A stretch of 64,000 bases of DNA from Pseudovirgaria hyperparasitica. Its lineage: Eukaryota. Both the position numbers and the translations under genes were made by a program. The notes under the pieces are model-generated. The model made no database searches. It was not told where the DNA came from and was given only the letters and a program-made list of their open reading frames with translations. The stretch is taken from assembly GCA_010093815.1 (NCBI GenBank), contig ML996590.1, one strand, 5' to 3'. Below are positions 6,301 through 53,731 of this stretch, piece by piece (within the stretch, counting starts at the first letter, position 1; each line of letters starts with the position of its first letter).

Positions 6301-8075
6301 ATATATTATATATATAGAGGGGTCCGATATTCGTCTAGAGGTGTAGTGTTATCCGGAGGTTATCCCGTTTAGTATACGACCATAATAAGAGTAGAATAGA
6401 CTTATAGATATAGAAGAGGACTCTCCTCTCCGGTCCTAGGGGGTGTATTATATAATATTCTAGGTGTGTTATTGGTTTATTCGTCTAGTAGTATTTATAT
6501 AGCTCCTATATAGCGAGTATTATAGCTCCGGTCTCCTCGAGGAGTATTACCTAGCTCTTATATTTATACTATACGTTTACTTATATAATTAGGAGTATAT
6601 CTTAGTCTCTTATTAGGTGCTAGAGAATATATAGGCCTATATATTTATTCCTCTAAGACGCGACTATCCTCGTATGGCGACGGCCTTAGTAATTCCTTAG
6701 GGCCGTCCTATTATTAGCTTTCTCGGGATAGTTTACTATTTCTAACTACTTCCTTATAAGGAGGTAGTCTATAGTAGTAGTATTATAGTAAAGAGAGAAA
6801 CGGTAGTAGGTCGTATCGTTTATAGCTACCTTACTCCCTTTATCCGGATTAAGTAGATATATTTAGTAATCTATTTACGTTTCACGCACGTAGCCGACTA
6901 TAACGGGTACTTACTATCGTAGTTAGAGTACTTCGCCGTGTCTCTATCCCTCTAGCCCTCTCCTTATATCCCGTAGGGGCACTTCTAGATACTATATTCT
7001 TATTAATACTATCTATACCTAGTCTTTTAGGAGTACCGCTATACTATATACCTATATCCCTAATAGTTAAAGTACTATATTATCGCCTATGCTCTATCCT
7101 ATAGTTCCGCTATAAGAAGCTCCCCTTCCGCTAGGAATCCCTCTTATATAATTTAATACGCGAGGGCGGGGTCCTTAAGCTCTACTATTATAGTAGAGTA
7201 TACCTTCGATCTAGTTTTAATCCCTTATATATTCTTCTACCATGCTCTTACGATCTTAATCCCTAGGTATTTTCGCTCGTTTAACTATTCTATCTATATA
7301 ATATCCTCTTCTCTAATAACCTATCCGCTTACGGGTATAGAGTATACCTATATCGGGTATATAGCCGCCCTAATAGAGGCGCCTAGAAAGATACTACTAA
7401 TCGCGTTCGGATTACGCGAGATAGTCTACTACGTGATATTCGTTATTATAGTAAGTACTACTCCTCCTAGCGTGAGTTTAGCGACGATAATATTTAACTA
7501 TATTCCCTTTTATTTATTAATCTTACTTACTATATCCTTTAGGGATGCTTACTAGATCTATACTAGGGTGTCCTTATCCTAGATTATAACGCGTATACTA
7601 TACGCCGAGTCGCCGGTCTAGGGGGCCCGTAGTATAGCCTCCGGTATTACTACTATTTATACCTATATACTAGGGTACTTACCTTAAGTAAGTTCCTCCT
7701 AGATTCTACGTAGGCTAGCCTCTATTTAGTTAAGTCTACCCTCCGGTTCTCCTAGTTATATCTTCTTCTTCTCCTCTATAATTCCCTTTAGATTCCGGAT
7801 AAGGTCCTAGAATATATATAGAAGGGTCTTCTAGCCCTCTCCGGCTTCCTTCTCTATACGTACTACCTAGTAGTTAATATAATCTAGGAGGGTTTCCCCT
7901 CTCGGGGTCCCCTTTATTCTATCTATCTATGGCGGCGTGCGTCTTTAGATATATTCTACGTTTTAGATAGGTATATAGTTACTCTCGGTAATATTACTAT
8001 ATGGCCTTTTCTATTATACCGGTAGGGGTATATCCGGTATATGCTAGGGTATGTCGGTGCCTAAGGCCGCTATAT

Positions 8076-8106
8076 TTATTAGTTAAGGGCTACCCTTAAC
8101 TAATAA
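8076..8106. repeat. 31-bp palindrome (LINE copy 1, immediately before the ORF1 start)
   Basis: Same sequence as 3287-3317. Confidence 0.95.
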
Positions 8107-8354
8107 AAGGGGGTCGGCGTGTTAGTATTCTAGTAGCGTAGTCCGTGCCTCTATCTCCGTGAGGATTTTAAGAGGGTATATATATATCTTTACACGGCGA
8201 TAACGTCTTGGTTTCGACGCTGCACGTACGTGTATATAGTAGTAGTTAGTGTACTCGGTATACTCTATCGATTAAGGTGTGTATCTCGCTATATTACCCC
8301 GAATGGACTAAGTTAGCCTCTTAGGGATGTAAAAGAAGTTTTTATTTCTACTTC

Positions 8355-10382
8355 GTACTAGTATCTATAGATAAATTAAGATATATTCTAAAATAAAAGG
8401 AATTCTATATAAAGATTCTATTTATAGTCTCTAATAAATACCTTTAGAGAAGTAAAATCTCTATAGATACTAAATAGAATTTTATAGTTATAATACTAAA
8501 GGGTATAAGAATTATAGTAGAAGAAGTATTAGAAAGTATTATAATTATATAGCTTCTAAAGCTAGAAAATAGATTTTTTATAAGAGAAATTACCTAGATA
8601 GTCTACGCCTAGATACCCGCACGATATTTTATAATAGATACTACTAAAGAAATTTAGAACTACTATAGCTATAATTAGAATATACTAATAACTTAGCTCT
8701 AAGAGTTAAATAAAGAAAATATTTAATAATATAGTATATAGCGTAGAGTAGATAGATTAATCTAGATAACTATTACTATATAGCTACTAACGAACGTTCT
8801 ATAGTTATAGATAATTAGTTAGCTAGATCTAGTTATATAGTAGCTATAGTAGAATTTAGAAGCAAGTCTAAACGCTTATAAGTATTAATAATATATCTTA
8901 TATAAATATATAAGAGTCTAGTATATTATATAACGTCTAAAAAGTCTTAACAAAAACTAGACTACTATAATTTAGTCCTTAGGATACTAGCTCTAGTTAA
9001 TCTATTAACTAAGTACTCTAGAGAATAAAATTTAAATTATTAAGAACGTCTATAAAAGGCGGTTATAGATACTACTTAATAAAAATACTCTATATAACTT
9101 AGTTTAAAAATAGAGTCTAATTAAAAATATAATAATTACTAAATATAAAGTAGTATATAAAAAGCTACTTAAAGAACTCTATATACTTTATACTAAAGAC
9201 TTAGTCTATATATGGCTTATTTCTATAGCTTTACTTAAGGACCTTATATAGAAACTTATACTAGTCTATAAAAAAATACTATAGTTTACTAATCTATTAA
9301 TCTATAGAGAAAATCACGGTTTTAATCTAGAGATAATAATAGTAATTATTTAGAACGGCTCTAGAGATAATAGAATGGCTTTAGATATAGAGATTAATAT
9401 ACTTCTACTACGGTATCTAATAAATAGTAGTATACTATACTTATCTAAGATATATACTCTAGAAGTCGCTATTAAACTACTACCACAAATTAATAACGTT
9501 AAAAATATTAGAGTAGTTAAGAGTCTTATAGATATTACTAAAGTATAGCTAATTATCTTAGTAAGAGAGATTACTAAAGAACTAAAGACTAGGGTATCTA
9601 TCTTATATAACTAAGAAGGCTTAATAAAAGCTATTAAAGTCCCGTTATCTATTATAAAATTAGTACTAGCTACTACTACGAAAAAAGTAGCGCTAGTTAC
9701 CCTAGTAAAAAAGGTAAAGCTAGCTACTATTATAAGAAAAGTAGTAGTAAAGCTAATTACTACCGCGTCTAATATAGCTTCTATATTATCTAAACTTTTA
9801 TTAATCTCTATAATCTTAACTACCTTAATCTCTACTATAATTAGTTAATATAAAGCGGAGATAAAGATACTTATCTTAGCTTATAAAAAAGAGATAGAAG
9901 TATAGATTAAAGAAATTATAATAGAAGCTCTAAAAAGGTTCTTAGTAGAGGTATAAAAGATCGCTATATAAAAGATAGCTATAACTATAGTAGTAGCTAT
10001 AATAGTAGTAGTAGCTACGTCTATAGTAACTACTATATCTATAATAACTACTACGCCCGCGATAAATACTTCGTCTAAGAGAGAATTAACTAGATAAACT
10101 CTAAGAATTACTAACTAGATATAAAGATTTATAGAGATAATTATAAATCTATAATATTCTAATAGTATAATAAAAACTATAGAGTATACTATAGAAGTAG
10201 ATATATAGAATATTAATAAAGTAATTAGAAGATACTAGTAATATATCTAAACTAGCTTTAAAAATTTACTCGCTAAGAAAGAGAAAGAGCTAGATAAAAC
10301 TTCTATACTTTTTAATAAGATAGTAGCCGCTAGTACTTATACTTAGAGTTACTATTCTAAACTAGATAATATTTAGACAGAG
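8355..10382 (+). pseudogene. Long RIP-degraded ORF of unknown identity, continuing at 18671-18965 and 32287-~32800
   Basis: One + frame traced from ~8830 with only TAA/TAG interruptions and Ala/Thr/Pro/Lys-rich stretches. The frame rejoins across the TSDs of elements A2 and B1. Confidence 0.5.
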
Positions 10383-13389: not shown

Positions 13390-16300
13390 CTATGTCTCTT
13401 TCACCTTCTTCCTTTTAGGCGGCCGTCCTTAGCGCCGAACTATACTAAAAAACGTTAAATCGCCGTACTTTGGTATAATTCTCTGCGATTCCGTGGCTTC
13501 CTTTACTAATCGCTACTTATATACTAATATCGCTGCTTTACTAATGTTTATTATAGGTTCCTAAGTATCTTTATTAGGATTATATTCTTTCTAACGAATT
13601 TTATATAGCCACGTGCCATCTTCGGCGTGTTACTAGCTAAGTATCTACTTAACTTTATAGATATCTATACCTTCTTACGTAACTACTTTATATAGTATCT
13701 ATTCGGAACGATCCGGTAATAATAAGGCATGAAATGGCTCGAGAAGCGTAATATAGAATATATTATACATCTTTAACGTAGGAGGGAGTTATAACTCGTA
13801 CGCCTGGTTATTAATTACACGAGTAATCTTATATAGACCTATTATCATATAGTTAAGCTTCTTCTTTAGCCTAATACTACGAATATTCTTACTATTTAGT
13901 AAAACTTTATCCCTAACATTAAAGATTATAGGTTTTCTACCCTTATTATAGTGCGATTTACTATAATTCGTAGTATCTTATAGTAACTTTATAACGCTTC
14001 TTTACGTTTAGAATAGTTCTATAGTAATTTCTATTACTTTAACGTTAGGTCGTTCTACTTTAAACTAAGTCCCTAAGAACTACGTATTATGGTTCCGACC
14101 GAAGTTTACTTTAAACGGACTTACGTGGGTTAACGTATGTCGGCTATTATTATACGCGAATTCCGCGATATAGACTAACCTTACCTAGTTATCCTACTTA
14201 TAGTTATAATATACGCGTAAATACGCCTCGACTATCTAATTCTACCGCTCCGTCTATCTATCTATTTATAGGTAGAACGTAGTACTAAGTTTCCGCTTAA
14301 TTCCTAGTGTATAGTAGAAATCCTTCTAAAATTTAGACGTTATCTACGGACCTCTATCCGAAACTATACTATTTAGTATACTATAGAGCCGGACTAGGTT
14401 ACGGAGTAGTATATCTATAAGATCCGGTGCTTAGATCGTCTTTCTTATAGGGATATAGTATAATATCTTCGTAAATCTATCTAGAACTACGAGTAAACTA
14501 TTATAAATATACCTAGAATACTTACTTAGGGGTAGATCTATGATAAAATCCATTAATAATTCCTTCTATACCTCCTTTAGCATAGGTAATAGCCTTAATT
14601 CGCTATATAGTAAGTGTCTATATACTTTTGTATGCTGGTAAACGTTATATATTTTTACGTAGTCTTTTATATATTTATAAAAACCCGGCTAGTCGTACGT
14701 CCTTCGGATTAAATCGACCGTCCTTATAACGCCGAAGTGCCCTACTAACGCGTAATCGTGCTATTCCCTTAAAACATCGATTCGTAAGCCGCCTTCCGGT
14801 ATATAGAGTCGGCCTTAGAAGTAGATCGCGTCTAATCGTCGTTCCTACCTTAATAACTATAGCGGATCTATAGCGCTTCCTTTCATGCTTATAACTTTCT
14901 TTACTAATATATCGGAATTCTAGGTAGATTTAATTAAGTCTTCGAGGGTTTTCTTAGTTTCTTAGACGTTTATTTAGATTACTTAATACCCGCTCTAATT
15001 CCTGCGGAGAATCGCCGAAAGTATCCTAGCTTCTAGTATTCTATTAGATAACTAGTCTTATAGTATCTAAAGTATAGTATAGTCTAAATTACACCAACTA
15101 TCTACATCATTCTATAACGATTTCTTATAATCTTTACGCCGCGATAGAGGATTAGCTTTATTCTCTCTTCTAGCTTTATATAAGATTTTAAAGTTAAATA
15201 TTAATATCCACTTAGCCTAACGTACTTATCAGCGATTAAGGACCTTAGTCGATATAAAGTAATATAGATTTACGTGATCTAATAATAATTCGATCTAATA
15301 TATAGAGCCTTCTAAATAATATCGCTATTACTTAAAACTCTTAACGATTACGAGTAGTTCCTAGTTATACGTATTATAACGCGTCTCTATATCCGCCATT
15401 TTATAGGAAAAGAAAGCGACCGGGTGCTATTACACCTTGTCTTTCGTATCTTTATACGGTTAACTTATAATTCTAGTAATTATAAATTCTAACGCGTTAG
15501 TTTTAACCTAAATATACTTCTTAGAATCGAAATGCCTAAGAATCGGCGTAGTTATAAAGTAATTCTTTAACGATCGGAACGTATCTCGTGCTTCCAGCGT
15601 TAACTATATCTTAACCGACTTAGCTTTACGCTATACTCGCCCATCTATAGGGATTTTACCGCCATTCTCTATGAGTTTATTAAGCGGCGCCGCAATTCGT
15701 AAGAAGTAGTAGTAGGTTCTAGCTATTCCATAATAGTCTTTACACGCTCCGGCTCCATTTTTAGGCCGCCATGTGTTATAATAAAGCCGAGAAACCTAAC
15801 TTCTTGTTAGTGAAACTCGCATTTAGATAATTTTACGTAGAGTTTATACTACCTTAGACGATTTAGCACTGATTTCACGTGTTCTTTATAATTCTATATG
15901 CTATCGGAGTAAATTAGTATATTATCGAGATAAACTACGTAAATCACGTTAAGTAATCCTACGAGTATAGTGTTAATATATCCTTAAAACGCTCCTAGCA
16001 CATTTATTAGCCCGAATAGTATAATAGTATACTTAAAATAACTATATCTAGTCCGAAATGCGGTTTTCCACTTATCTCCACGACGAATTCGAAGCTAGTA
16101 ATATATATCTCGTAAATCTAGCTTCGTAAAGTACTTTACCTTCGTTAATTAGTCTAAAGATTTACTAACTAGCGGTAATAGGTGACTATTCTTCTTAGTT
16201 ACTGTATTTAGTACCTAATAGTCAACGTATAGATATAAACTTCCGTCTTTCTTCTTTATAAAGAGAATAGGTGCGCCGGCCGATAACGTACTACGACGTA

Positions 16301-18665: not shown

Positions 18666-19692
18666 TAGAGATACTAATTTCTAGAATCTCTATATCTAAG
18701 TACTAGTTTAATATATCTAAGTACTAGTTTAAACAACTACTAGAATAAAATAAATAGAAGAATAAATTCTATAATATAGAAGACTTCTAAATGAAAGAAG
18801 CTACTACTATAGAAACTAAACTAATTATTAAAACTAATAAAGTTACTACTACTATCGATACTACTACCAAAACTATTTTAGCTACTTCTATAATTATTAT
18901 TATAGCTCTAGAACCGGTAGTTACTATAATTAGAAGCTAATTAACTAATACTTACTTAACTTAGCTATAAGAATTATAGACGTAGGATAGTAGTCTAACA
19001 GGTTATAGGAGGATTCGGGAATATATTTAAAAGGGTAGTCTACTCTTCTAACGAGGTTAATTCCTAAAGAGTAGAAATTAAGTATATACGGCCTACTTAT
19101 ATAGTAGTCTCGCTTATTCTAGCTGGCTTAACCTAGGTCCACCTATTACGGACCGTACTAGACCATAGTAGTCTAGTTAAGTCTATCCTAGTATTAGCCC
19201 TAATAATATCCTTCTTCTTTTTATACTTCGCCCCGAAGTACTTAGCTATATATAAATCTATAATTCTATAAGCTTTATATTTATACGCGCATCTAATTAA
19301 ATCTATATAATATTATTAATAGTCTTTATATTAGTAAACTTAAGCTCTAGTTTACTTTTATTTATATACGCGCTTATCCCTTACTTTATAGCTACTACCT
19401 TAGAGATAGCTCCGTGGGTTATATAACCGCTATATTAACTAAGCTTATATTTAGTTCTCTTATTCTAAATTTTCTTCTCTAGTATATCTACCTTACTCTT
19501 AAGGTAAGTCGTTAATTTATATACTATCTTCTTTAGTTTAGATCCATTCGGGTCTAGAGTAGTCTATTTTTATTAGAGCTGGTCCTATATAATCTATTCG
19601 TGTTATTATAGTTACTAATTTAGCTTCTTTAATTACCTTTAAGACTAAACGAGTATTCTACTCTTAGATCTCTAGCTAATATATATATATAG

Positions 19693-20997
19693 ATATCTAA
19701 TACTAGTTCTATTCCTAAGCCTACCTCCTCCTCTTATAAGACTTACTCTAAAGAGATTATCTCTACCCCGGCTATACCGGCTAAAAAATCTACTTATTAT
19801 AGTAGTATAAAGGCGCGCTCTAAGTTAGAGAAGAAGGTAGCTAAGGCTACTACTACTATTACTACTAACGTAGCCACTAGTCGCTCTAATCTAGATAATT
19901 CTAGTACTAGTATTGCGGAAGAGATAGCTATAAAGCCTATCTATACCTACTCACGCTATCTATCTACTCTACCTTCTTTAGAGGATAAAGAAGATCTTAT
20001 TATAGATAATAATCGAGAGTTTACGTCTTCGCCGCCTTACTCTAAACGCCGTTCCTCTTTTCGGTCTAATATAGACTAACTTAGTCGCTCTAGGTCCTTT
20101 TAGGACCTTAATATTCGCTCTAAACCTAGCCCTAGTAATAATAAGGCCTAGGTCGCTAAAGATACTAAACGTAGTTACGGTTTACGCTATAGGAAAATAG
20201 CGAACTACGGTTCGATATACTTTAAGTATATTTAGGCTTATACTACTAGCTCTAAATATCTCTTCCGCTCTAACTCTAGTATTAGCTACTACTCTACTAA
20301 CCGCGACGGGCCTATATACCTAATCTTTAAGCTCCCTACCCGCTACTACCGCTATACTATCCTTAGTAAAGTTTATCTTTAGGTAAGTCTATTAGACTAT
20401 TTTAGTCTAGGGTAATCTAAAGTTATCTATACTAATATATTTTTAGGTTTCTATTTATATATAAGATATATATAACGATCTTCGTGTCCGTAAGACTCTC
20501 GGCGGTTCTAGTAGTTATCTAGCTTCTATATATAGGGAGTTTAGAGAGCGCTATAAGTTCTTTCTAGAGGTTATTAAAGTATAAGTTTAGAAACCGTTAA
20601 TTATTATTAACCTTAGCTTATAATTTTTAGTCGCCGCGAGATTCCTAGCACTTAGGCTACCTATTCTAGGGAGTCGGTTTTAGCTACTAAGGCCGTAGAA
20701 GAGATTCGTACTATTTCTTTCTACCCGCCTTATACTACTAACGGGTCTTATAAGAGATCTACTAGTTCTCCTTCTAAGTTACCTTATAAGAGGGTATATA
20801 TTCTATTCTAGATTATTCTAGACCGCGTTAGCTAACTTTAGGTCTAGTCGCTCCGCTCTAGCGCTTAGTTATTGTCTTACTAGGCTCTAACTAAGCGCGT
20901 GGTTACTCTAGAGAATAAGGTCTCTAACCTCCGTCGCTCTATTACTTAGTTAGTTCGTTTACCATACTCTAAGAGTAATAATAAGATAGAGGAGTAG
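19693..20997 (+). pseudogene. Antisense four-exon accessory gene in Gypsy B copy 1 (basic N-terminus, Zn-cluster-like Cys motif, coiled coil)
   Basis: Introns 20383-20446, 20581-20630 (donor RIP-mutated GTAAGT->ATAAGT) and 20794-20841 (GCTAAC branch) give a continuous ~380-codon frame. De-RIP reading CFKC...C...RCYRCTVLGKVCLQ. Confidence 0.72.
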
Positions 20998-23703
20998 CTC
21001 TATAGCTCTATTTACTAGGGTTTCTATATAGTATATATTAGCTCTATCTACCTAGTTTCTATCTATTTTAGTCCTTTTTAGACCGTTTAGATATCTATCT
21101 ACTAGTTTTCTAGTAATTTAATTCTTAACTTAATAATATTATATACGTTCTTATTTATTCTATAACTATTAAATTTTAGGTTCTAATTTCCTTTAAGTTA
21201 CTTAAGTATAGGTATTATATATAAATTAGTTTATCTCTCTAAATTATATTAGAGTACCCGAACTAGTAGCCTAGTAGTTATTAGTTCGGGTACCCTAACT
21301 TTTTATATTATATATTACGAGTTTAATTCCGTAGTAGGGTACCTTTTTAGTTTCTTAGTTCTATATTCTTCTCGTGGATAATAGTCTATATTAGTCTATT
21401 CTAGACTTCTCTATATTATTCTATTATAATATATCGCGTCGCGTATCTATAACGGTTATTTACGTTTTCTTCGCGTTTAGTAACCGTACATCGCTTGAAT
21501 TATAGGGCTACCTTATAGAGTTTTCCTAGTATACGTTTAGGATTTATAATTCGATACTTTGTTCTCTATAGTATCCTTCTTCTTTTTATAACGGCCCTAA
21601 TAGCGCTAGGTTTACGGTAGTAACGTATTATCCTATAACCTCTATTTATATATAGCTATCACGGTACTTAAGATATATACTATAGGTTCCTAGGTATTCT
21701 TATCCTTGGTGTAGTTCTTCTAACGGATTCGATACTTTTAGACACCGTTCTTATTAAGTCTATGTTCGATAATATAGTCTACTTTATATACGTCTAGTCT
21801 ATCTTAGGGTATAATACAGTATAATTATACATTTATACGTTTATATATATTAGGTCGAAACCTTTCAAGTAATATAACGTGGAACATATTATAGACTTTT
21901 ATATTATTTCCTAGGTCGAGCTCGTAGACTCTTATACTAATATAACGTTTGATTTAGAAGGGACTAGCCATTTTATAATTAAGCTTTTTATTTACTTATA
22001 ACATTTATATATTATAGATATTAAGAAGGACTTCGTCTTCCTTCTCGTACGCTTAATCTTTAACTAATCTATTATAGTACTTTATATATAACTTATTTAC
22101 TTACTAGATTATTACGCGATAGTTATATATAGTTTTAAAGATTTTAATTACTAGTTCCTACGCGTAGACGTTAACATCTATCGTTTAGTCGAACTAGACC
22201 GTATAAGGTTCGAAATCTATCCTTAGACTATATCCTAGGTTCGCCTAGAAGAGCGTGACACCTATTATACTATAACGACTATTATTATACGCGAATTCTA
22301 CTATACTTAGTAGAGAGGCCTAGTCGTCTTATTTAAAATTATAGAATATATGAAGGTAGGCCTTGAGCGTTTAGTTCTATCGCTCTATCTAACCATCTAT
22401 TTATAGATAGAATACTATTAACATATTTCTATTTATACCGGCTATTTCGTAGAATAACATCTAGAATTTAGACATGAATATACTCCCTTAGTCTATAACG
22501 ATCCTTTTCGGTATACTATAGACCTTAATAATCTTATTCTAGAATACTTATGCTAGTTCTTTTAATATAATTATCTTCTATATAGGGACGTACCTAGATA
22601 TCTTTATAAGTCTATCTACGATAATAAGAATTAAATTATAACTTATTCTAAGTATCTTACTTAGAGGTAAGTTAACTATAAAATCTATAGTAATATCTTC
22701 CTATATAAAGAGGGGGACTAGTAGAGACTATAAGTTCCTATATAGCTTATATCTAGGTGCCTTTATTCTTTAATAAATTAGATAAGTAGCTATCTATTCT
22801 TCGATATACTTAGATATATCTTTCTAAAAATAGTACTAACGAATCGAGCTTAGGGTGCGTATATACCCGAAATATTCTACTAGGTTAGCGTTATGGTATC
22901 GGCTAACTATAGTAAATCATGCGTTACCTATCGGTATATAGTACTTTCTATTATAGTAGAGCAAGCCGTCCACGAAGGTCTACTTATAGTCTACTTCGGT
23001 CTATAAGAATCTATCTTACTATATTTTATATAACTTTAAAACTATTAGGTCTATCTTTTATAGATCCGCGATTAACTAGGCGAGCTCTACTTAATATACA
23101 CGCTAGGCACTATCGCCCTCCCTAATAGCGCCGATAAATGGCTTACTAGGGACTTTAGTACCGTGTCTTTAGTTACTAGCTTCGGTCTTATAAATTTAAT
23201 TACTAGTATCGGCGTTAGTATCTCGCTAATTATTAGATAACTTATTATCTAACCTCGTCCTTAAGAGTTAGATCTATAGCTACTCTAGGACCCTATAGCT
23301 ACTATAATCCTAGGCGCCTTCTTTATAGTTAGGTCTTCTTAATATTCTATTAGCTAGGTTTATACTTCTAGGTCGATAGTAGATTATAAAGTAGAAATTT
23401 ATAAGCTACTTAGCCTATTAAACCTATTAACGATTTAAAACCGTTATACTTATAAACCATATTAGAAAAAAAACTTCTTACACCCCAACGGACTAAACTA
23501 GTTAATTCGGGGTAAAATAGCGATTTATATACATTAAACGATAGAGTACACCGAGTATAATAACCTCCGACACACGTATATACGTATAGTATATAATACG
23601 CGACGATACTAACGTGTAGAGATACTATATATATATACTTAAAGACTCTTCGATAACATGAGTATAGACTATATCTAATAAACGCCGACACGCCGACCCT
23701 CTT

Positions 23704-23734
23704 TTATTAGTTAAGGGCTACCCTTAACTAATAA
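23704..23734. repeat. 31-bp palindrome upstream of LINE ORF1
   Basis: Read directly; followed by CCATAGCG (RIP of CCATGGCG start context). Confidence 0.95.
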
Positions 23735-26700
23735 CCATAGCGGCTTTAGGTATCGTAATACCCCGGTAGACGCTAGATATACCCCCACTAGTACGGTAGA
23801 AACGGCTATATAGCAATATTAATGTGGATAGCTAGACACCTATCTAAAATATAGGAACTAACTAAGGGTGCGAAGCGCTATAGATAACCTAGACTAAGGG
23901 GACCCTAAGAGGGGAGACCCTTCTAGATAAAATTAAATACTAGGTAATACGTATAGAGAGGGACGCCGAGAAGGGAAAGAAGACCCTCCTTTATATATTC
24001 TAGGACCTTATCTAGAACCTAAGAGGAATTATAGAGGAAGAAAGGAAGTCGCTATAAGAGGAACCTAGTAGTAGACTTAACCGAATGGAAGCCAGCCTAC
24101 GGAGAATCTAGGAAGAGCTATTCTAAGGTAAGCGCTATAATACGTAGGCTTAGATTATAGTAACACCCGGAGCTACTATACTAAGGACTACTAGAACCAT
24201 AGATAGAGCATATAGTATACGTATCGTAATCTAGGATAAGGACATGCTAGCGTAGGTCTAATAGGCATCCCTAAAGGAAATTATAAATAAGATTAATAAA
24301 TAGAAAGGAATGTAGTCGAGCGTCGTGGCTACTAAAGTTACGCTAGGTAGAGTAGTACTTACTACTATAACGAATACTACGTAGTAAAACATCTCGTAAG
24401 ATCCGAATATAATAGGTAGTATCTTCCCCGGCGCGTCTATTAGGGTAGCTATATACCCGATTATAGTATATATAGTATCTATACGGGGATAGGCTATCGG
24501 AGCGGAGGATATTACGCGTATAGAATAATCTAATATACAAAAATACCTAGGGATTAAGATTGTAAAAGCGTGGTAGAAGAACCCATAGACGATTAAGACG
24601 ACGGTGAAAAAACACTCTACTATAATTATAGAGCTCTAAGACCCCGCCCTTATATAACGCATTATATAGAAGGGATTCCTAGTAGAAGGAGAGCTCCTTA
24701 TAGCCGAGCTATAGAATAGGGCATGGGTAATAATATAGTACTTTAACTATTAAGGGTATAGACATACTATATAAAGGTACTTATAGAAGACTAAGTATAG
24801 ATAGTACCGTGGGGACCACGCTATCTAGAAGTACTCTTATAAACCGCGAGGAGACGGACTAAGAAACAGGGATATAGTATAGTATTTAAACTATGACGGG
24901 AAACACCCGTTATGGTTATTAACGTGTATAAAACGTAAATAGATTATAGAATATATTCGCACGATAAAAGCGAGAGGCGCGAGATAGTTATAGAATATAA
25001 TACCTACTACGGGCCCTTCCTTTATAATACCCCTAACCTCCCCTCTAGAAGGTAGTTAGATAGAATAGTAGACTATCCCGAAGACGATAGGACAACTAAA
25101 AGGCATAGTTAAGGCCGCTGCCGCGCGAGGATAGTCGCGCCTCTAAGGAATAAGTATATAGGTATATATACTCCCTAGTATCTAATAAGGGACTAGAATA
25201 TACTCCGAATTATATAGATAAACATATAATATAAAAGGGAGAACTAGGCGACGCTCCTCGAAGAGACTAGGGCTATAATACTCGCTATCTAGGAACCCTA
25301 TAAATACTACTAGACAAGTAAACCAACTATACACCCCGGATACTATACTATACACCCTCTAGGACTAAAAAGACGAGTCCTCTTCTATATTTATAGGTTA
25401 ATACTACTCTTATTATAGTCGTATACCAAGCGCGATAACCTTAGGATAATACTATACCTATAAATAGATATAGGCCCCCTATATATATATAATATATATA
25501 ACTAATAACGTATACTTATACTAGACGAGATGCTCGAGGGTACTACGGAACTAGGGTAATATAACCTCCTAGGAGACTTTAACCTCTACTACTAATAGTA
25601 GGGAGGCCTAGCCGTAGTAAGGGAAGAACTTAGAGTAAGGGAACTACGTACCCGCTACCACGACTTCCTATATCTACTTACACCTATAGAATAAGTTATA
25701 TAGAAAAAATATAAATAGGACGAAGACGGGTCTACGCTTAACCTTACCTTCGCTACGGAGTATATTAGTTACTAGATCTAATACTACCGCCTAAGCTAGG
25801 TATAGATGGATTCCGACTATAAATATATAGAAACCGTAATAAACGTATATACCCCGAATGAATAACGGGGATAATAGATATAGAAGGATACTAACTAGGA
25901 AAAGTACCTAAAGGACCTAGAATCGGCGATCCTAGATCCCTCTATAGTCGATATATCTAATAACCTAGCCATAGACTAGGCCGTATAGATACTCCTATAA
26001 ATATACTAGAATACGAGAAATAAACACGTGCTATACTAAATATACCGGCCCCCGGAAGTAAAGGGGATTCCTCGAGTATAGGAAAGTAGATAAGACGCCT
26101 AAAGGCTATATAGACGCGTATACTATACGAGAATACCCGAGTCGTAGAAAGAATAGAAGGAAGTAATATAATAACGTGATAAAGTCCTCTATAATAAAAG
26201 GCGTAAATAGTAGCGTATAATTACTAGTTAATAGACACGATACGTAATAGAGCTATGGCGTATAGCGAAATGGGCTAAGGGTATAGATACTCCGACACCC
26301 CCGCTACTTATGCCTCCCCTAATATATTAGCGGAGAATATACTCTACGGGCCTTAAGAAAACTAAGGCCCTATAGAAGGCCATGTTCCCTCTTCTAGAAC
26401 TAGTAGACCTATTAGATATTTATGGCGCCGAATATCTATATATAGTAGATATCCCCGAAGGAGTTACGGAGAAGGATATACTTAATATTATTAAGATACT
26501 CCCAAATAATAAAGTACCTAGACTAGATAGAATTCTAAATCGATACCTAAAAAGTACTATAAAAGTAACCCTACCACTTATTACTTATATATTCTAAGCA
26601 TACGTCACGTAGGGGTACCACCCCTAGAGCTTCTAAGTCGTCTATACTATTATACTCCCGAAACTAGGAAAGAGCCCTAACTCCCTAAAGGGATAGAGAC

Positions 26701-28480
26701 TAATCGCCCTTCTCTTCTACCTAGGTAAGATACTAGAGACTATGGTAGCGAAGAAGATAAGTACCGCGGTATAGAAATATAATCTCCTCCCTCTAAACTA
26801 GAAGGTAAAGGTAGATAGCTCTCTAATAATAGCTATCTAATATATTATTAAAGTCGTCTAGGCCGTATAGAAATAGGGACGGGTAGTATTACTCCTCTCC
26901 CTTAATATGGCCGGAGTATTTAATAAGGTAAACCATATAAGACTTATTTATAACCTCTAGATAAGACGAATACTAGAATAGATTACACGCTTTATATAGT
27001 TATTCCTTATAGGAAGAATAACTTAGATATATATCCCTAGGTACTAGAGCGAATATAAAGAGATGGTATACGGCATCCTATAAGGGAGTACCATCTCTCT
27101 AATTCTATTCCTCTTCTTTATAGTAGACCTTCTTTAAGGAATAAAGTATATAGAGGTAGTCGAATACGCTAATAATATATACCTCCTAGCTATTAATAAT
27201 AATACTAACTGAACGTATAGACGACTAGAATAGAACTATAAGAGGTACCTCTAGTAGATAAAACGCCACGGAGTAAAGTTCGCCCCGGAGAAATACTAGC
27301 TTATATACTTTATTAACTATTAAGGGAAATAGATAACTAGGGAAGGCGAATAACGCCCCCGAATCGACGTATTTAACGAATTACTAGTATAAAGTATACG
27401 CGCGCTCGGAGTTATACTAGATAGTAAGCTTAAATAGGGACCATAAGTGGCATACGCCGTATCTAGAGCCCTCTAGATAGAAGCCGCTATACGACGGATT
27501 ATAGCCTCTATATAGGGAACCGCCCGGGATAAGGCACGCCAGCTATATATATCTATAGTATGACCCGCCTTTACGTATAGATACGAGTGCTAGTATACGG
27601 CCCTTATATAGACTAGGTGAATAAAGCTCGAATCCATATAGAACCGTATACTCCGTCTTATATTAGGTATATATAAAGCTACTAACATGGTACTACTACG
27701 ACGCGAGATAGACGTTATAAGTATATATAACTTCTACTAGATATAGAGGGTAGTATACTTTACTAAATAATAAGTATAGGAACGCATAGGAAACGTAGAA
27801 TATACTTTCGCCGCGCTACGTGTACGAATTAGTATATATTACCGTATACTTCTATATATAGGCTAGAATCGAATACGGTATAGATACTTAATAGAAGCTA
27901 ACTCTAGCTAAGTAGTATAAGAAGTCTGAGATAACCTAGACGCTCTCCTAGACTAGTAGAGCCTTTAAGAACTCGTAAAAAATATACGGTCGTAGACTTA
28001 AGATAAGTAGAAAGAGGTACTCTGTACCTACTAGACCTTCTAGTAGGATAGGTACCTAGAGTAGATTCGAGGGCCATAGAAGGAACTAAGTAAATAGATA
28101 TATAAAGGGCTAATAAAAGCCTAAGTATCTATACTTATCTAAGCCCGAACGGGCGCTATAGAACTCCTATACTATATCTATAAGAGAGGCGTTCCCGATA
28201 TCTCTCTATAGTATAAGGCGTGCGGCCGGAGAGGTATAATACGCTACTATCTAGCTATATACCCTAACCTCTATATATAACGGTAATAGCTTATCCACGT
28301 TACGAAGACTTTAGATATTATATAATAGCTTAATAAGTACCCTAAGGACGTCTCCCGATAGATGCTTATATATCTACTACTTCTCTAGTACTAGTAGACC
28401 TAGAAATATATACTAGAAGAGACCTAGTATACGCTAGTAGTAACCCGATATATACCGGAAGAACCCTAGGAGAACCCCGA

Positions 28481-28511
28481 TTATTAGTTAAGGGCAGCCC
28501 TTAACTAATAA
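28481..28511. repeat. 31-bp palindrome at LINE ORF2 end
   Basis: Read directly; loop CAG. Confidence 0.95.
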
Positions 28512-31500
28512 CCTCCGCACCTATACGTGCTACCTAAGGGTAAAATAACGGTAATATAGGCTATAGGCTAATAGGCGTACTCTATAGCTATATACTTAAG
28601 ACGAAACAGAGGTTTAACGAGATGTAGTTATAGATATAAGGAAGTTTTTCCCTATAGGGTTTCTTCTTATATAGTAGCTTAGACTAGAGGAGGCATAGGC
28701 CTATAGAGTACTACTCTACCTAGTTATATAATATTATTATTATTATTATTATACTTATAAACCCCTTTAAGTTATAGTAATTAGTTAGTAACTTAACATT
28801 ATATATAGTACCTTTAAGATAATATTACTACTACTTAAATAACTCTACTATTACTAGTAGCTCTTAGTTATAAATAGTATATCTAGTCTTGACGTCGGCT
28901 ATCTTACGTAAGAAGAACGTAACTAGATACTATTAGACCTTTTTAGACTCTATTAGTCTAGGCTAGGAGAGTATACCCGAGATTATAAATTCTAATATAT
29001 TAGTTTTAACGTGAATAGGTTTAGTTAGGTCGAAGTATACTAGTAATAGAGCGGTTATAAATGCTTCTTTAATCTTCTTAAAGGATATTCTTTCGACCTT
29101 AGTTAATTTAATAGATTATAATTTAATATTACGCTATTTCTATCTACCACGGACTATAATAGATAAGTTAGTAGTAGTAGTATATGTATTAAGTAGTGCG
29201 GCTAAACGGGAGAAGTATTTAATAAATTTTCGGTAGTAGTTAGCGAAGCTAATAAAGACACGTATATCTCGAACGGATTTTAGTTTAGACTAGTCTATAA
29301 TAGTAGTAACTCTATCTCTCTCTATAGTTATACCTTTATTAGTAATAACGAAGCTAAGAAAGTTAATATAGTTCTAATGGAACTCGCATTTAGATAGCTT
29401 AATATATAGATTATACTTTTCTAGCCTATCTAGAACTATACGTACATGCTAGATATACTCCTCCTTATTATCTAAGAAGATAAGGATATTATCTAGGTAC
29501 ACGATATATATCGTGTCGAGTAGGCCTACTAGCGCGTTATTAATATACGCTTAGAAGGTGTCTAGCGCGTTAGTTAGTCTAAAAGAGACCACGGTATACT
29601 TAAAGTATCTATAACGGGTCCTAAAAGCCGTTTTCTATTCGTCGCCTTCCTTAATACAAAGGCGATAGTAGGCGTTATATAGATTAAGCTTAGTAAAGAT
29701 CTTTATACGTTCTAGTCTATTAATAGACTCGGAGATAAGAGGTAGTAGATAACGATTCTTTCGCGTAATATTATTTAGACTATAGTAGTCGATATATAGA
29801 CGGAGGCTCCTATCCTTCTTCTTTATAAAGAGAATTAGAGCTCCGGCTAGGGATATACTAGGCCTAATCTATTCTTATATAAGGTTCTTTTTAATATATT
29901 CTTAAAGGGCTTATAACTTAGGTTCTAAAAGAGAGTAGATGGGTCTATATAGAGGTTACTAGCCGTCTTTAAGATTAATAGTAAGGTCGGTAGATTAGTA
30001 TTAAGGTAGTTTAGAGAAATTAATCGCTAACACGATATATTAGTATATTTTATACTAATATAGTAGGTTTTTATCTACTTTAATACTAAGCTCGCTATTT
30101 TACGTAAGTAAGAGTACGTAGATAGTAGAGATTACCTTCTTATAATCTTTCTAGAATTATTTATTATTAATAAGCTATACTAGTTCCTATTAAGGTAGGT
30201 TTATACGCTAGCTAGCTATCTTCTTAAGGAAGTCTAGTTTTAGATTATATTTCTTAAGCTATAGTATACCTAGGATTATATTAAAGGGACTATCTACTAT
30301 AATAAAGGTTAAGTAGTAGAGTTTCTATTTCCCTCCGCTATCCTAGATACTATATTTAATAGTATAGATACCGTATAACTTAATAGAACCGTTAATACCA
30401 TGGAATATAGTATCTATTAGAGCTTAGATATTAGCGTTAAGTTCTTATACTCGTTAGGTTAATATAACGTTAGTAGCCGACCTACTATTAAGTATTATAG
30501 TCTAATATTATCCACGAGGGACCTCGATAGATCTAGCCTATAGTTTAATATACTATTTAGCGGATTATCCCTCTATTATAGTCGCGTCTATAAGTCGCGA
30601 GGGTTTCTCGTAGGCTATTAGTTTTTTATATTCTATACTAGGTAGTTAGGCGCGATGTGTTCTAGCTACTAGCACTTATAGTATATAACTAGTTAGTTAG
30701 TTATATTAGTACTTAGTAGCTTCCCTAAACGGTACTTAGATACTATATAGTCTATTCTACTATAGGTATAGTAAGTAACTTTAGGTTATTTATATAAGTC
30801 GGTCCTTATATCTTAATATATTAATTAGTAGAGAGATTCACGATATAATCCGCGTGGTTTTAAATTTAAGATATAGTAGTAGCCTTATAACGTCCCGCGA
30901 GATCTATTACTAAATTAGTTTTAGTTAGACGATTTTATATTAGATTAGATTATTAGAGATAGTCATGTACTAGCACGGTATTAATTATTTATTATATGCT
31001 AGTATCGCTCCGCGAGGTTTATAAGAGCTTAGAGGTCTATAGAGATTATCGTTATAAGGTTAAGACGGTTCTTTATATTTAGGGCGAGGGACCGTTTAAA
31101 GTCGTTATACTATTAAATTATATAATCTTCTTTAGCTTCTCTTTAGAGGGGCCGAAGGTATTTAAGGAGTTATAATAGTAACTAATTATCTCGTTATCGA
31201 GTCTTAAAGATATAGCCCTAGGCCTAGTCGCGTCGTTTAGCCCTATTACTAAAATATTAGAGGAGAAATTTAGTAAACGTGTCCTAGTTATAGGCATCCT
31301 TAGAATATTTAATTTAGTATACTATCTAACGTTCTAAAGGCGTCGGGTCGAGATAGTTCTAGGCGAATCTAATTTTATTACTATCGTTCGTGAATAGATA
31401 GAAGAATCGGCTATATTAGTAAGTCTATACATGGAAACTCTTTCTACTTTTACCATTAAAGTAAGGTAGTTTCTTAGGTTAGGGTAATTAGGATAGTAGT

Positions 31501-32799
31501 AGACTAGGATAGATCGTTTTAGTTAGTATAGGTCTATATAAATATAGATTAGTCGTTACTAGAACTAAAGCGTATAATATAGCTTTAAGTCTCGTAGTAT
31601 ATCCTTAAGCTTCGTCGAGTTCGCGTAGTTATTACTCGAGTTAAATATATTATTACCTCTCTTTATATAGTCTAGTATATACGTTATTATACGGTATAGT
31701 TAATATTAGGCGATTCTAATAGATTAACTCGTTAACGTTAATAAGGTCTAGCCTTATATTAAGGTTAGGTCTAGTATAGTTTAAACTAGACTAAGATAGA
31801 GTATAATAGACTCTATCCTCGTGTTCTATAATATCTTCTATAGTTATATAGAATATCATGCGAGTTATTAGTGCGATAGTCTATAAGGTATAGTTATTAG
31901 TAGGGGTAGTTATAGATAGACTATTCTTCTTATTTAGGTTAGGAGAAGGTCTACTATAAGAGGCGGTACCACGAGTATTATAACGAGTGGTTAGAGCCAT
32001 TTCTATAAACTACCGTCGTGCTATATAAAGAGGAATTAAAATATAAGGATTATAGACGTAGAATAGTAGTCTAATAGATTATAGGAGGATTCGGGAATAT
32101 ATTTAAAAGGGTAGTCTACTCTTCTAACGAGGTTAATTTCTAAAGAGTAGGAATTAAGTGTGTACGGCCTACTTATATAGTGGTCTCGCTTATTCTAGCT
32201 AGCTTAACCTAGGTCCACCTATTACGGACCGTACTAGACCATAGTAGTCTAGTTAAGTCTATCCTAGTGTTAGCCCTAACATTAGCTAAGAAAAGATAAT
32301 AGTATATATAAATAGTTATAGATCTCTATAGCTATACTAATACTATAAATAGATTAAATAGATATAAAAGAAATAAGAGTAATAAGAATAGTTCTAAATT
32401 ATATATTTAAATACTCTAATAGCTAATTTAACGCTCTTCTTGAGATTTATAATAGACTTTAGATAGTTACTATAAATCTAAAGGTAATTAAAGCTATTCT
32501 TACGTAAGAACCTAAGAGATATAGAGCTATATTATAATAATACTATTAATACTTCTACTAACACCTAGGAACTAACTTAGTATAGTATCTATATAATTAT
32601 CTAATGGAAGCTAGCTTACTAAAGTAAGTACTATAACGAAACTTATTACTTTAAATTACCCCTAGTAGCTATTATAGAAAGTAATAAGAAGATAGATAAC
32701 GGTAAGAACTACGGACTAAAGGTCCTATATATATAGCCGTAGATTCTATAAAGTAGCTAGTAATAATTAATCTTATACTTAACTAAGATATAATAACTC

Positions 32800-35762
32800 T
32801 ATCTTCAATAAGAATAGTATACTTAGAAATAGAACCTTTAGATTTAGTCTTAATAGGAGAATACTAATAACTATAATTAGATATAGCGGAACTAGAATAA
32901 TATAACTTAATTCTAGAAATACTATAGCTTAAAGAAGTTAACCCTATAATTAATTAGAAAACTAAGGAAATTATACTATAGAGAATATTAAAACTCTTAG
33001 AAACTATTAAAGAGAAGTTAGAGATTAATAAATCTATTAAGGCGCTAATAACTAGAAATTCTATCTACTATATTTAAAGACTTAATAATAAGTAAGATAA
33101 CGTAGAAAGCGGACCCTTATATAAGAAATATATAGTATAATAAGATATATCTATAGATAAATAGATTTAAAAAATAAATAATATATTTATACTAGAAAAA
33201 TATTACTAATATTATATTATATTTAAAGAAGAACTTAAGATAGAACTACTAAAGTATAGTCTATATAATTATATAATAATCCTCTAACTAGGAATATTAT
33301 CTATATTTAAAAGTATATATTAACTAACTAAAAAATAATTAGAAATAATATAATAATATATTAAGAAAATAGAAGTAAAAGAATATATCTAACTATCTAA
33401 ATTATCTATAGAATATCTAATACTCTTTATACTAAAGAAAGATAGAAGTAAATAACTCTATATAGACTATTAATACTTAAATAATATTACTATTAAAAAC
33501 TAATACTCTTTACTCTAAATTAATAAGCTATAGAACTAACTTATAGAAGCTAAGTACTTTACTATAATAGACTTAAGAGAAGTCTATAATCTTATATATA
33601 TAGTAGAAGAAGCTAAATAGAAAATACCTTTTAGACTTAATATAGATACTATAAATATCTAATAATACTATTTAGACTAACTAATATACTAGCTATATTT
33701 TAGATACTAATTAATAATATATTAAGAGAATATATTAATTACTTTATAATAGTCTATCTAGATAATATATTAATTTACTTAAAGAATCTATTAGAATATA
33801 GAGAATATATATCTAAGATACTTTAGATATTATAAATAGTAAATCTACTAGTAGAATTAAAGAAGAGTATCTTTTATATATAGAAAGTTATATTTCTAGA
33901 ATTTAAAATTATATTTAGAGGAATATAAATAGATCTAAAGAAGATTAAAACTATTAAAAATTAGAAGTAATCTAAAATTATTAAGGAAATCTAAGGACTT
34001 ACTAGATTTATAAACTTTTATAGGAAATTTATATATAACTATTCTATAAAAATAGCTCTACTATATAAACTTATAAAAAAGAATATAATATTTAAATAGA
34101 GACTAAAGTAAGAATAAATATTCTAGTAATTAAAGAAGTCTATTATAACTAAACTAATATTAAAGATATATTTAATAGAAAAACTATATAAAGTAGAGAT
34201 AGATATATTAGAATTTACTATTAGAGAGTATTAATCTAGATAGATAGATAAGGGAAAAGATACTCTATAGTATTTTATTTCTAAAAGTTTTAAGAATTAG
34301 AAATAAACTAGCTAATCTATAAAAAGAAACTCTATATAATTATTAAATATCTTAAGAAATAGAGAAGCTATCTCTATAGATAAGATTATATAATAAAAAT
34401 ATAGACTAACTATAAGAACGTTACTACTTTTACTATAATAAAGAAACTATAAAAGAAGTAAATTAGTTAGTATAAGATTCTTATAGAATTTAATATCTAG
34501 ATTATATACTATAAAGAATCTAAGAATAGAATAGCTAATACTCTTAGTAGATAGATAGAATATAAGTAAAAGAAACCTACTATAGTATAAGCTATATTAG
34601 AGATAACTAAAGATAGAAACCTCTAACTAATATAATATATTATAATAATATAAAAGAAATTTATATTTAAAGACCCTAAGGGAAGAAGTATAATCTCTAG
34701 AGATAAGATCTACTACTTTATTAAGGAATTTTATAAAGATCTAATATATAGATACTAAGAAGAAATAAAAACCTATAAAAGATTTAAAAGATACTATATA
34801 ATCTATAAGAAAAGATAAATTATTAAGAAAGTTATATAAAACTATATTCTATATTATAAAAGCTAATCTAGTAGATGAAAGCTCTATAGAGAACTCTAAC
34901 TAATTCCCCTACTATTATATACTTAGAAAATAATCTCTATAGACTTTATAATAGATCTACTACTCTTAAGAGAACTAGTCTTATAAATATAGTATAATAC
35001 TATACTAGTAAGAGTTAATAAACTTATAAAGTATACTTACTTTATACTATATTAAAAGAATATAGATATAGAAGAAATAGTATATATATTTCTATAAGTA
35101 GTTATAGTAAACTATAGATTATCTAATAGTATTATATTAGATAGAGATAAGCTCTTTATATTAAACTTTTAGAAAAGCCTAGTATAATAACTTAGAATAA
35201 GCTACTAACTATTAATAGTTAATTATCTATAGATAGATAGATAAATAGAGATTCTAAATAGAATACTAGAATAATATCTTTAATACTATATTAATAAATA
35301 ATAAGATAACTAGATAGAACTACTACTACTACTAGCTTACTTTATCTATAATAATATAATAACCTTAATAACTAAAACTTTACTATTCTATATGAATTAT
35401 AGATTTAACTCTATAACTAGCTATAATTATAAACTAGAATAATTAGTACTAAAAGTAATAATTAAGGTAGAATAACTATATAAGCTATACTTAGAACTAT
35501 AAACTAAACTTTCCTTTATTAATAAAAGAATAGTAAAATATATAAATTAGAAAAGAATAAAGAGACTATCTCTAAGAGAGAGAGACCTAATATTTCTTAT
35601 ATAAAAATATTAAGATATAACAACTAAATAATAAATTAGACTTTAAGAAGATTAGACCTTTCTAAATAAAATAAAAAATTTTAGAAGTTAATTATAAACT
35701 ATCTTTACCTTAGAATATAAGAATATACCTAGTATTCTCTATCTTATTACTAGAACTAGTAC
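32800..35762 (+). mobile_element. Ty3/Gypsy family D pol fragment (protease C-half, RT, RNaseH, integrase), very heavily RIPed, truncated
   Basis: De-RIP motifs DLILGMPWLKEVNPIIDW, LCVDY, VYLDDILIY, ADALSR, ISMDFI, QTDGQTE, HPVFxISLLEP. No matching LTR pair found. Confidence 0.82.
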
Positions 35763-35764
35763 TA

Positions 35765-39125: not shown

Positions 39126-39137
39126 TATAGAGTTATA

Positions 39138-45710: not shown

Positions 45711-45715
45711 ATAGA

Positions 45716-53726: not shown

Positions 53727-53731
53727 ATAGA

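Follow-up and report, generated by a model that had tools for sequence, protein, structure and literature searches.

Genes that lie between pol and the 3' long terminal repeat (LTR) of LTR retrotransposons, antisense to gag-pol, are known in plants and in the Boty elements of Botrytis, and the review passages that treat them report no clear function (PMC7264820, PMC11963269). The fungal case, and the nearest precedent in print for the gene treated here, is brtn, the additional antisense gene described for Boty-like Ty3/gypsy elements of Botrytis cinerea and Sclerotinia (Zhao et al. 2011, as cited in PMC7264820, PMC8365987, PMC4227169 and PMC5987419), and the plant cases, the antisense aORF-3R, include gene23 of maize Grande, rice RIRE2 and, with a TRP28 domain, Silene and other Retand elements (PMC7264820, PMC11963269, in the parts dealing with these families); antisense genes of retroviruses also exist, as a passage of PMC11963269 records. 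Here we analyse a gene in this position in the window, by which we mean the whole 64,000-nucleotide (nt) stretch of contig ML996590.1 of Pseudovirgaria hyperparasitica (assembly GCA_010093815.1), whose positions are used throughout. The gene belongs to a Ty3/gypsy element, here called family B, that is heavily altered by repeat-induced point mutation (RIP), and we conclude, with a probability of roughly 0.7, that it is a RIP-inactivated copy of an accessory gene typical of this fungal Ty3/gypsy chromovirus lineage. The window copy is itself a fossil, and the interest lies in the gene family to which it points.

The antisense gene of family B

Family B was defined by self-comparison of the window, in which copy 2 is whole and copy 1 lies in two pieces. 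Because the pol domains are on the minus strand and a polypurine tract stands beside the LTR, the gene region is placed between the end of pol and the 3' LTR, its plus strand antisense to pol:

19693-20997, plus: antisense gene, copy 1
46443-47747, plus: antisense gene, copy 2, with the intron 1 donor mutated to ATAAGT
18962-23458 and 28749-32337, minus: family B copy 1, its halves separated by a nested insertion
45712-53783, minus: family B copy 2, full length, with LTRs at 45715-45958 and 53486-53729 and gag-pol on the minus strand
18966-19208, minus: 3' LTR of copy 1 (LTR pair 18966-19203 and 32042-32279, 95% identity; right edge taken from the adjoining polypurine tract)
about 19210-19234, minus: polypurine tract beside the 3' LTR, read from the sequence, its reverse complement purine-rich and ending AAAAAGAAGAAGG
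19235-19692, plus: spacer of about 460 nt, the presumed promoter and 5' untranslated region of the antisense gene
21470-23458 (start approximate), minus: 3' part of pol in copy 1 (integrase, chromodomain, basic tail), convergent with the antisense gene and placed from translations, Pfam matches in copy 2 and the copy-to-copy alignment

Homology between the two copies runs continuously from the LTR through the gene region into pol (18962-23458 against 45712-50208, 93%), and the pol of copy 1 resumes at 28749, past the nested insertion. When copy 2 was translated in six frames, with X at stops, and scanned with Pfam, pol domains appeared in only one frame, which is a minus-strand frame: RVT_1 at 1.8e-20, SH3_Tf2-1 and two models of RNase H. 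Past these domains come a segment resembling a chromodomain and a basic tail. Copy homology, the strand of the pol domains and the polypurine tract together confirm the placement given in an earlier, sequence-only reading of this DNA, which had put the gene antisense to pol and between pol and the 3' LTR. Its presence in both copies, claimed in the same reading, is likewise borne out by a gapless alignment of 1305 columns at 96% identity. The gene copies show 95 differences, 92 of which are transitions. In many of the inter-copy differences a CG of one copy is paired with a TA of the other, and a few CA or TG intermediates also occur, which fits a two-step mutation in which CpG is first changed to TpG or CpA and then, by RIP, to TpA.

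The exons and introns of copy 1 are as follows:

19693-20382, plus: exon 1, 230 codons, with an ATA start, a basic Ser/Thr/Lys-rich N-terminal part and then a Tyr-for-Cys motif; 5 stops
20218-20382, plus: putative Cys-rich domain within exon 1, now Tyr (Y176-x2-Y179 ... Y199/200 ... Y218-x2-Y221-x6-Y228-L-stop), ending at the intron 1 donor
20383-20446, plus: intron 1, 64 nt, phase 0, GTAAGT..TACTAAT..TAG
20447-20578, plus: exon 2, 44 codons; 1 stop
20579-20640, plus: intron 2, boundaries ambiguous, with donor GTATAAGT and candidate acceptors at 20616, 20630 and 20640
20641-20793, plus: exon 3, 51 codons on the 62-nt model of intron 2; 1 stop
20794-20841, plus: intron 3, 48 nt, phase 0, GTATAT..GCTAAC..TAG, the same in both copies
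20842-20997, plus: exon 4, 51 codons and TAG, with the hydrophobic 3-4-3-4 heptad stretch LTKRVVTLE(N/D)KVSNLRRSITxL; 5 stops in 52 codons

The coding signal is strongest in exon 1, where 5 of 230 codons are stops (2.2%) against 3.5-23.6% in the five other frames. In 3000 Markov-2 random sequences of 690 nt no frame had five stops or fewer (minimum 8, mean 18.3), and among real 690-nt segments of the window outside family B such a frame was found in 2 of 182. Over exons 1-3 the stop rate is again 2.2%. The true pol frame of the element (48413-51985) has 7.3%, barely under its wrong frames (8-15%), and the antisense exons 1-3 have a far stronger three-base periodicity; either the Gln and Trp codons that RIP attacks were once rarer in the accessory gene than in pol, or its codon bias was stronger. 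Each copy of the spliced model, 377 codons long, holds 12 stops, one terminal and 11 internal, and all are TAA or TAG, as RIP of CAA, CAG or TGG predicts. The ATA at the start codon position is RIP-compatible with ATG, and basic stretches, such as KRR in exon 1, are present in the product. The sequence-only reading had further described a heptad, coiled-coil-like tail and a Tyr pattern in the RIP-mutated frame, and both are found in the translation, the former in exon 4.

Plus-strand splice signals mark the ends of the stop-poor blocks, and the length of intron 1 modulo 3 agrees with the +1 shift of frame across it. Introns 1 and 3 are canonical, the loss of the intron 1 donor in copy 2 (ATAAGT) being a weak point. 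For intron 2 a 38-nt form (20579-20616) and a 62-nt form (20579-20640, with a GAG acceptor) are in frame, whereas a 52-nt form (20579-20630) has the best signals but leaves a one-base frameshift; among the relatives described below there are parallels in a 39-nt intron of the L080 gene and in AAG acceptors in the L009 model. Of the three GT..AG introns that had been proposed, two therefore stand as described and the middle one is canonical or in frame but not both, and the single plus-strand frame of about 380 codons that their removal was said to give survives as a stop-poor frame of 377 codons, interrupted by its internal stops and by the frame problem at intron 2. The gene in the window is dead, with 11 internal stops per copy, ATA for ATG, a lost donor in copy 2 and a one-base problem at intron 2, and for the annotation of this genome the region is a dead transposon gene and not a host gene.

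Further copies were sought among DNA contigs of four runs (X1-X4) of the source organism, placed on 19262-21400 in 30 bins. Contigs from X1 (5798) and X2 (2008) match this interval at 80-100% and cover all 30 bins, so that family B appears to be very abundant in the source organism, contig depth not being a copy number. The gene is in most copies of the family, as seen in both window copies and in the full contig coverage, and no insertion or deletion within 19693-20997 was reported by more than one contig of one run. The changes in X1 are almost all transitions (A>G at 53 places, T>C at 54, C>T at 31, G>A at 26), and second bases of candidate Cys codons are not among the 40 listed of the 181 variable places. 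The TAG at codon 181 (20233) is private to copy 1; copy 2 and nearly all of the contig depth have AAG.

The surrounding DNA is a nest of RIP-ruined fungal repeats in which GC content varies from 0.18 to 0.40 along the window. In the gene region CA and TG stand at 0.05 of expectation and TA at 1.81, with a TpA/ApT ratio of 2.26, and the interval 19262-21400 holds 410 TA, 6 CA and 8 TG dinucleotides. The spacer at 19235-19692 has 7-14% stops in all six frames, none of them stop-poor, and contains a TATATATATA run immediately ahead of the ATA start. The nested insertion that splits the pol of copy 1 (23459-28748, about 5.3 kb) is 73-75% related to 3048-8350 (inverted) and to 36100-39139, and looks like another retroelement family within the RIP-mutated nest. 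Elsewhere there are runs of 10 N at 54733-54742 and 58753-58762, probably assembly gaps, and a very low GC content (0.18-0.20) at 33001-36000.

Intact relatives and their pol phylogeny

Relatives of the element were drawn from two sets, 79 metagenome loci found with a profile of the best pol matches and 16 IMG/VR loci found with a profile of the nearest pols, and were scanned in all six frames with a loose Cys pattern, CX2C..C..CX2CX4-9C. The 79 loci gave 15 matches, 14 of which (in 12 loci) are antisense to pol, the remaining one being in sense at the gag CCHC knuckles of L074; the 16 viral loci gave a single match, also antisense (L080). Two of the 14 antisense matches, that of L014 and the first of L025, look like chance. 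An antisense motif downstream of pol is present in 7 of the 33 loci that have at least 1000 nt past the detected pol C-terminus (combined by hand), and a Cys motif in 4 further loci, in truncated or permuted contigs. Antisense open reading frames (ORFs) of L062, L043 and L068 were also considered and look like other transposons or chance ORFs; the one in L062 (5601-6662, minus), 354 amino acids (aa) long and downstream of pol, resembles by eye a copia-type gag with pre-integrase and probably marks a nested element.

In five of the relatives, which are not RIP-mutated, an uninterrupted ORF results once two or three canonical introns, each 39-79 nt long, are taken out:

L002: 257 aa; exons of 294, 137, 142 and 201 nt; introns of 71, 47 and 51 nt; phases 0,2,0
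L003: 286 aa; exons of 267, 197, 211 and 186 nt; introns of 79, 72 and 58 nt; phases 0,2,0
L080: 259 aa; exons of 252, 146, 190 and 192 nt; introns of 39, 65 and 60 nt; phases 0,2,0
L009: 212 aa; exons of 186, 216, 168 and 69 nt; introns of 46, 50 and 49 nt; phases 0,0,0
L016: 362 aa; exons of 498, 297 and 294 nt; introns of 47 and 51 nt; phases 0,0

Their introns have GTAAGT, GTAGGT, GTATGT, GTGAGT or GTGAGC donors, CTGAC or CTAAT branch sites and mostly YAG acceptors. The gene of L002 runs from 6844 to 5902, with the pol stop (5678) on one side and an LTR repeat at the contig end on the other; that of L080 spans the contig ends, within one repeat unit of a permuted contig. The contigs of L080, L002 and L029 are circular permutations or tandem arrays, positions 1-123 of L080 being repeated at 6995-7117 and positions 20-126 of L002 at 7590-7696. 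In seven of eight relatives checked, the stop-free frame of exon 1 or of the ORF is on the gene strand only, the exception being L009 with a pol-strand frame of 61 codons.

Five Cys columns, CX2C ... CX2CX5-6C, are invariant in the five proteins, and the C-terminal exons are helical and heptad-like. The spacing in L002 is non-canonical, CX2C-X16-C-X24-CX2C-X5-C, with a first-to-last span of 55 residues compared with 53 in the window. The sequence-only reading had staked its gene on splice sites being conserved in unRIPed relatives, and the position of intron 1 is conserved in all five: it starts in phase 0, two codons past the last Cys of CX2CX5-6C, and the window has the same arrangement with Tyr, Y218-x2-Y221-x6-Y228-L-stop abutting GTAAGT. 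To judge by the letters, this end of the window motif would be the RIP image (TGY to TAY, CAG to TAG) of L003, where GTAAGT comes immediately after C-G-R-C-x6-C-L-A. Across the window, with its approximately 128,000 codon positions, this tail motif was counted 133 times, and the chance of its lying exactly at intron 1 is roughly 1 in 1000, for a comparison that was noticed after both sequences had been seen. The sole other Y-x2-Y-x5/6-Y-x2 directly before a donor-like signal (GTATAT) in the window, at 14370-14408 on the plus strand, is antisense within the integrase of another element and is taken as chance.

The window gene thus shares place, strand and heptad tail with these relatives, and has as many introns as the three nearest (L002, L003 and L080); its exons 2-4 measure 132, 153 and 156 nt against 137-197, 142-211 and 186-201 nt in them. 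In a Model B, intron 1 is 83 nt long with AAG as its acceptor, and exon 2 is read in the third frame; this model would give the phases 0,2,0 of L002, L003 and L080, and was set aside because the first TAG after the branch point is skipped. Exon 2 of Model A is more like exon 2 of L002 and L003 by eye only, no alignment test supporting the likeness.

The pol phylogeny gives the window element the same neighbours. In a FastTree analysis of pol cores from the window and from the 62 of the 79 loci that cover at least 600 of 892 query residues, with Shimodaira-Hasegawa-like support, the window pol is sister to L002 and L003 (98) and belongs to a clade of 8 (99), into which all the intron-bearing elements among the 79 loci fall. 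In a hand-chosen subset of 31 rows to which L080 was added, it is sister to L002 plus (L003 plus L080), with a support of 97. One member of the clade, L053, has too little sequence to show the gene. The antisense proteins diverge much faster than this tree: L003 and L080 are 72% identical in pol and 28% in the antisense protein (E 1.2e-23), and the L002 protein matches neither L003 nor L080 in BLASTP with an E-value below 1, despite the common gene structure and the sister pol. A protein search with the L002 ORF returned only itself, and the ESM Atlas gave no usable match to it.

A second group of elements, forming a separate pol clade, carries antisense ORFs of 166-192 aa without introns (coordinates are those of each locus):

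L022, 5377-5952, minus: intronless antisense ORF
L024, 2839-3336, minus: intronless antisense ORF
L029, 6626-7171 and 173-727, minus: two intronless antisense ORFs
L030, 5608-6126, minus: intronless antisense ORF
L036, 1311-1829, minus: intronless antisense ORF
L038, 4586-5119, minus: intronless antisense ORF

These ORFs are mutually homologous (E down to 5e-14), their stops overlap or abut the 3' end of pol, and they have the exact Zn2Cys6 spacing, CX2CX6CX8-9CX2CX6C. A long helix is predicted for them with confidence, and G-S-S or G-N-S closes their tail. L009 links them weakly to the intron-bearing group (E 0.007). In L029 the two ORF copies differ from each other and flank one gag-pol. The nearest ESM Atlas clusters of the intronless ORFs are Ascomycota 'hypothetical proteins' with 122, 62 and 210 members and no Pfam family, which is a lead only.

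Nature of the product and rival explanations

Several results weigh against reading the window gene as a member of this lineage of accessory genes, and against a zinc cluster in its product. The product finds no homologue: window translations with X at stops returned nothing among 1325 candidates scored in a word-indexed search of 5.8 billion proteins, and an exhaustive hidden Markov model (HMM) search of 1.84 billion representatives gave no match, whereas the equally RIP-mutated pol, used as a control, found 746 proteins at E<=1e-10 among 8000 candidates scored (best 38% identity, mostly metagenome contigs). Against the relatives themselves, tblastn of the window exons against the 79 loci, both as they stand and with in-silico RIP applied, had no match under E 0.02 and none at the expected place; the L002 protein, plain or RIP-transformed, gave colinear weak matches (E 3.5-11) with better chance matches elsewhere; Smith-Waterman scores lay within those of shuffles (z at most 1.5); and HMMs built from RIP-transformed relatives scored the window no better than its shuffles. 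Such missing similarity is expected, because the gene evolves far faster than pol. The motif comparisons between window and relatives were made after the sequences had been seen, and matches to L002 and L003 of an eye-made pattern, C-x-[KR]-C-[AIL]-[KQ]-[GA]-[YF], itself defined after seeing the window, are not counted as evidence. In the gene model, intron 2 is not canonical and in frame at once, and the stop rate of exon 4 is no lower than in other frames, so that exon 4, for which the stop count is uninformative, rests on its heptad pattern and its continuity with exon 3. In the tree, no such antisense gene was seen in L001 and L008, which belong to the window's clade, and the window pol is a long, compositionally odd branch. 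For this last reason the tree was repeated with the same in-silico RIP applied to every row; the placement was kept (support 99, with 90 for the clade of 8), this time with no long branch flagged.

Because RIP is near-saturated, Cys and Tyr cannot be told apart in the window, though two Tyr positions can be excluded as former Cys: Y209, which is Arg in copy 2, and Y219, which is His (CAC, with C at 20347) in about half of the contig depth, a base that shows some copies to have kept CpA sites that escaped RIP. What remains fits only the CX2CX6C second half of a Zn2Cys6 cluster. A six-frame search of the window for the canonical spacing (CX2CX6CX5-12CX2CX6-8C, with Y or C allowed) gave one unrelated match (9945-10037) and none in the gene. 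Pfam Zn_clus (PF00172), which the sequence-only reading had expected to be informative, has no match in a six-frame scan of copy 2, in the L002 ORFs or, at E up to 1, in the ORFs of L022, L038 and L030. Structure searches, to which it had also looked, put Zn2Cys6 DNA-binding domains at the top among the structural neighbours of the L022 model, though without significance, and an AlphaFold model of the L003 exon 1 domain with four relatives is poor (predicted local distance difference test score, pLDDT, 53.7). A profile of the intronless group found nothing significant among PDB sequences, LAC9 appearing at E 0.65. Of the element-encoded, zinc-cluster-like DNA-binding regulator once proposed for this locus, the part that stands is an antisense, intron-containing gene of the element with intact relatives that have real Cys; the Zn_clus relationship found no match, and of the cluster motif only half is there. 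We consider the odds even that the product has a zinc-binding module, hold only tentatively that it is a DNA-binding autoregulator of the element, and regard a role as activator or anti-silencing factor as speculation.

A real gene whose product is not a Zn2Cys6-type regulator is unlikely, though it is the alternative that deserves most thought. The protein could then carry some other zinc-binding or disulfide-rich module that binds RNA or protein, or the antisense transcript itself could matter, through double-stranded RNA or small-RNA control, with the protein secondary. The non-canonical spacing in the window's clade, as in L002, the count of only five invariant Cys columns in the five relatives, the missing Pfam match and the poor exon 1 model all suit such a product, and a passage of PMC7264820 discusses a double-stranded-RNA role for antisense transcription of ORFs of this kind. 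On the other hand the sister clade has the exact Zn2Cys6 spacing, with Zn2Cys6 DNA-binding domains as its best, non-significant, structural neighbours, and that the ORFs are kept open in relatives so far diverged speaks for selection on the protein. It is very improbable that the gene is cargo, a piece of a host gene (of a zinc-cluster transcription factor with its introns, for instance) that the progenitor of family B acquired by transduction or insertion and that plays no part in the element. Transduction is one of the origins discussed for additional ORFs in LTR retrotransposons (PMC7264820, in its treatment of such ORFs), and no homologue found by sequence ties the window gene to other elements; yet five related elements have a gene of the same build, place and strand whose distribution follows the pol tree, the genes of L003 and L080 are homologous and accompany sister pols, and the motif scan of the 79 loci fell antisense to pol in all but one of its matches.

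Least credible of all is that there is no plus-strand gene, that the periodicity stems from an extra ORF on the sense strand or from chance, and that the GT..AG segments are accidents of TA-rich RIP sequence. The minus frame in register with exon 1 is itself open, with 8 stops in 230 codons, and since it is stop-poor and RNY-type periodicity is strand-symmetric, stop counts alone cannot settle the strand. Donor-like hexamers are common in the window (242 on the plus strand, 254 on the minus strand), and strand calls are weak in RIP DNA: codon-usage log-odds trained on RIP-mutated pol chose the true frame in 10 of 22 test windows and were dropped as a strand test. Against this, the stop-poor blocks of the window end at canonical plus-strand splice signals with a frame shift that matches the length of intron 1 modulo 3, an openness like that of exon 1 was reached by none of the random sequences, and it is the antisense strand alone that is stop-free in seven of eight relatives, L009 having in addition its short pol-strand frame.

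If the window gene is, as we prefer, an inactivated copy of an accessory gene of the element, its intact forms would be transcribed from a promoter of their own, in the spacer between pol and LTR or in the 3' LTR, convergently with pol. Their introns would survive retrotransposition, since on the genomic sense RNA they appear as reverse complements (CT..AC) that cannot be spliced. Retrotransposition reporters with an antisense artificial intron work by the same logic. The product would be small and nuclear, with a Cys-rich module that binds zinc and, after it, helical and coiled-coil segments; it probably dimerises, binds DNA and regulates the transcription or copy number of its own element. 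The simplest role would be regulation of the element's own LTR, parallel to what reviews suggest, in their passages on plant antisense ORFs and retroviral antisense genes (PMC7264820, PMC11963269). On a wider view, which we put forward as possible rather than probable, at least two fungal chromovirus clades would encode, antisense and by the 3' LTR, a miniature Gal4-like factor built of a zinc module with six Cys, a coiled coil and a tail that is acidic or basic, which binds the LTR or host promoters and sets expression or escape from silencing; in one of the clades its gene has introns of a kind that could outlast retrotransposition in antisense orientation alone. The factor would be widespread in Ascomycota among 'hypothetical proteins'.

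Comparison with known systems

In a full-text literature search no LTR retrotransposon was found described as encoding a zinc-cluster-like protein; the brtn paper was outside that search and the family may be described there. Novelty may lie in the zinc-cluster-like character of the product, in the intron conserved downstream of the Cys module and in the occurrence of such genes in two chromovirus clades. The likeness to Zn(II)2Cys6 factors (Gal4, Pho7, Leu3, Hap1, Put3, AlcR; PF00172) lies in the six-Cys spacing and long helix of the intronless relatives, and in the window in the CX2CX6C half, as Tyr, and the heptad tail. The differences are the missing Pfam match, structural matches that are not significant and, in the window's clade, much longer loops between the Cys pairs; the element proteins are moreover small (about 160-360 aa), lack the fungal middle-homology region and are transposon-encoded. 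The antisense gene HBZ of human T-cell leukaemia virus type 1 (HTLV-1) is spliced, encodes a basic leucine zipper (bZIP) protein and is transcribed from the 3' LTR. It is similar in outline, as a regulatory protein with a dimerisation helix that is encoded antisense near the 3' LTR and partly spliced, but it differs in fold and in its vertebrate retrovirus host, and there is no evidence of common descent.

For antisense genes between pol and the 3' LTR the present case offers an architecture that can be recognised, in which helical or coiled-coil segments come after a zinc-cluster-like module of six Cys and the position of an intron is conserved, and it illustrates how antisense orientation lets a retroelement keep spliceosomal introns. 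The intact relatives in two chromovirus clades make the function of such genes directly testable in fungi. The plant aORF-3R genes agree with it in place and orientation and are conserved within families, some of their products being nuclear or predicted to bind DNA, according to the relevant parts of PMC7264820 and PMC11963269. They differ, as far as those parts describe them, in their plant hosts, in belonging mostly to non-chromovirus lineages and in their unrelated protein families (TRP28, SMC-like), and the word 'intron' is absent from PMC11963269 and PMC7264820. With the fungal gene brtn the comparison is by description only; database searches with the window product or the L002 ORF returned no BRTN-named protein. 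By that description, as it is given in the articles that cite it, brtn and the family B gene are alike in belonging to a fungal, chromodomain-bearing Ty3/gypsy element, in being an extra gene set between pol and the 3' LTR and antisense to gag-pol, and in being present across the copies of their family.

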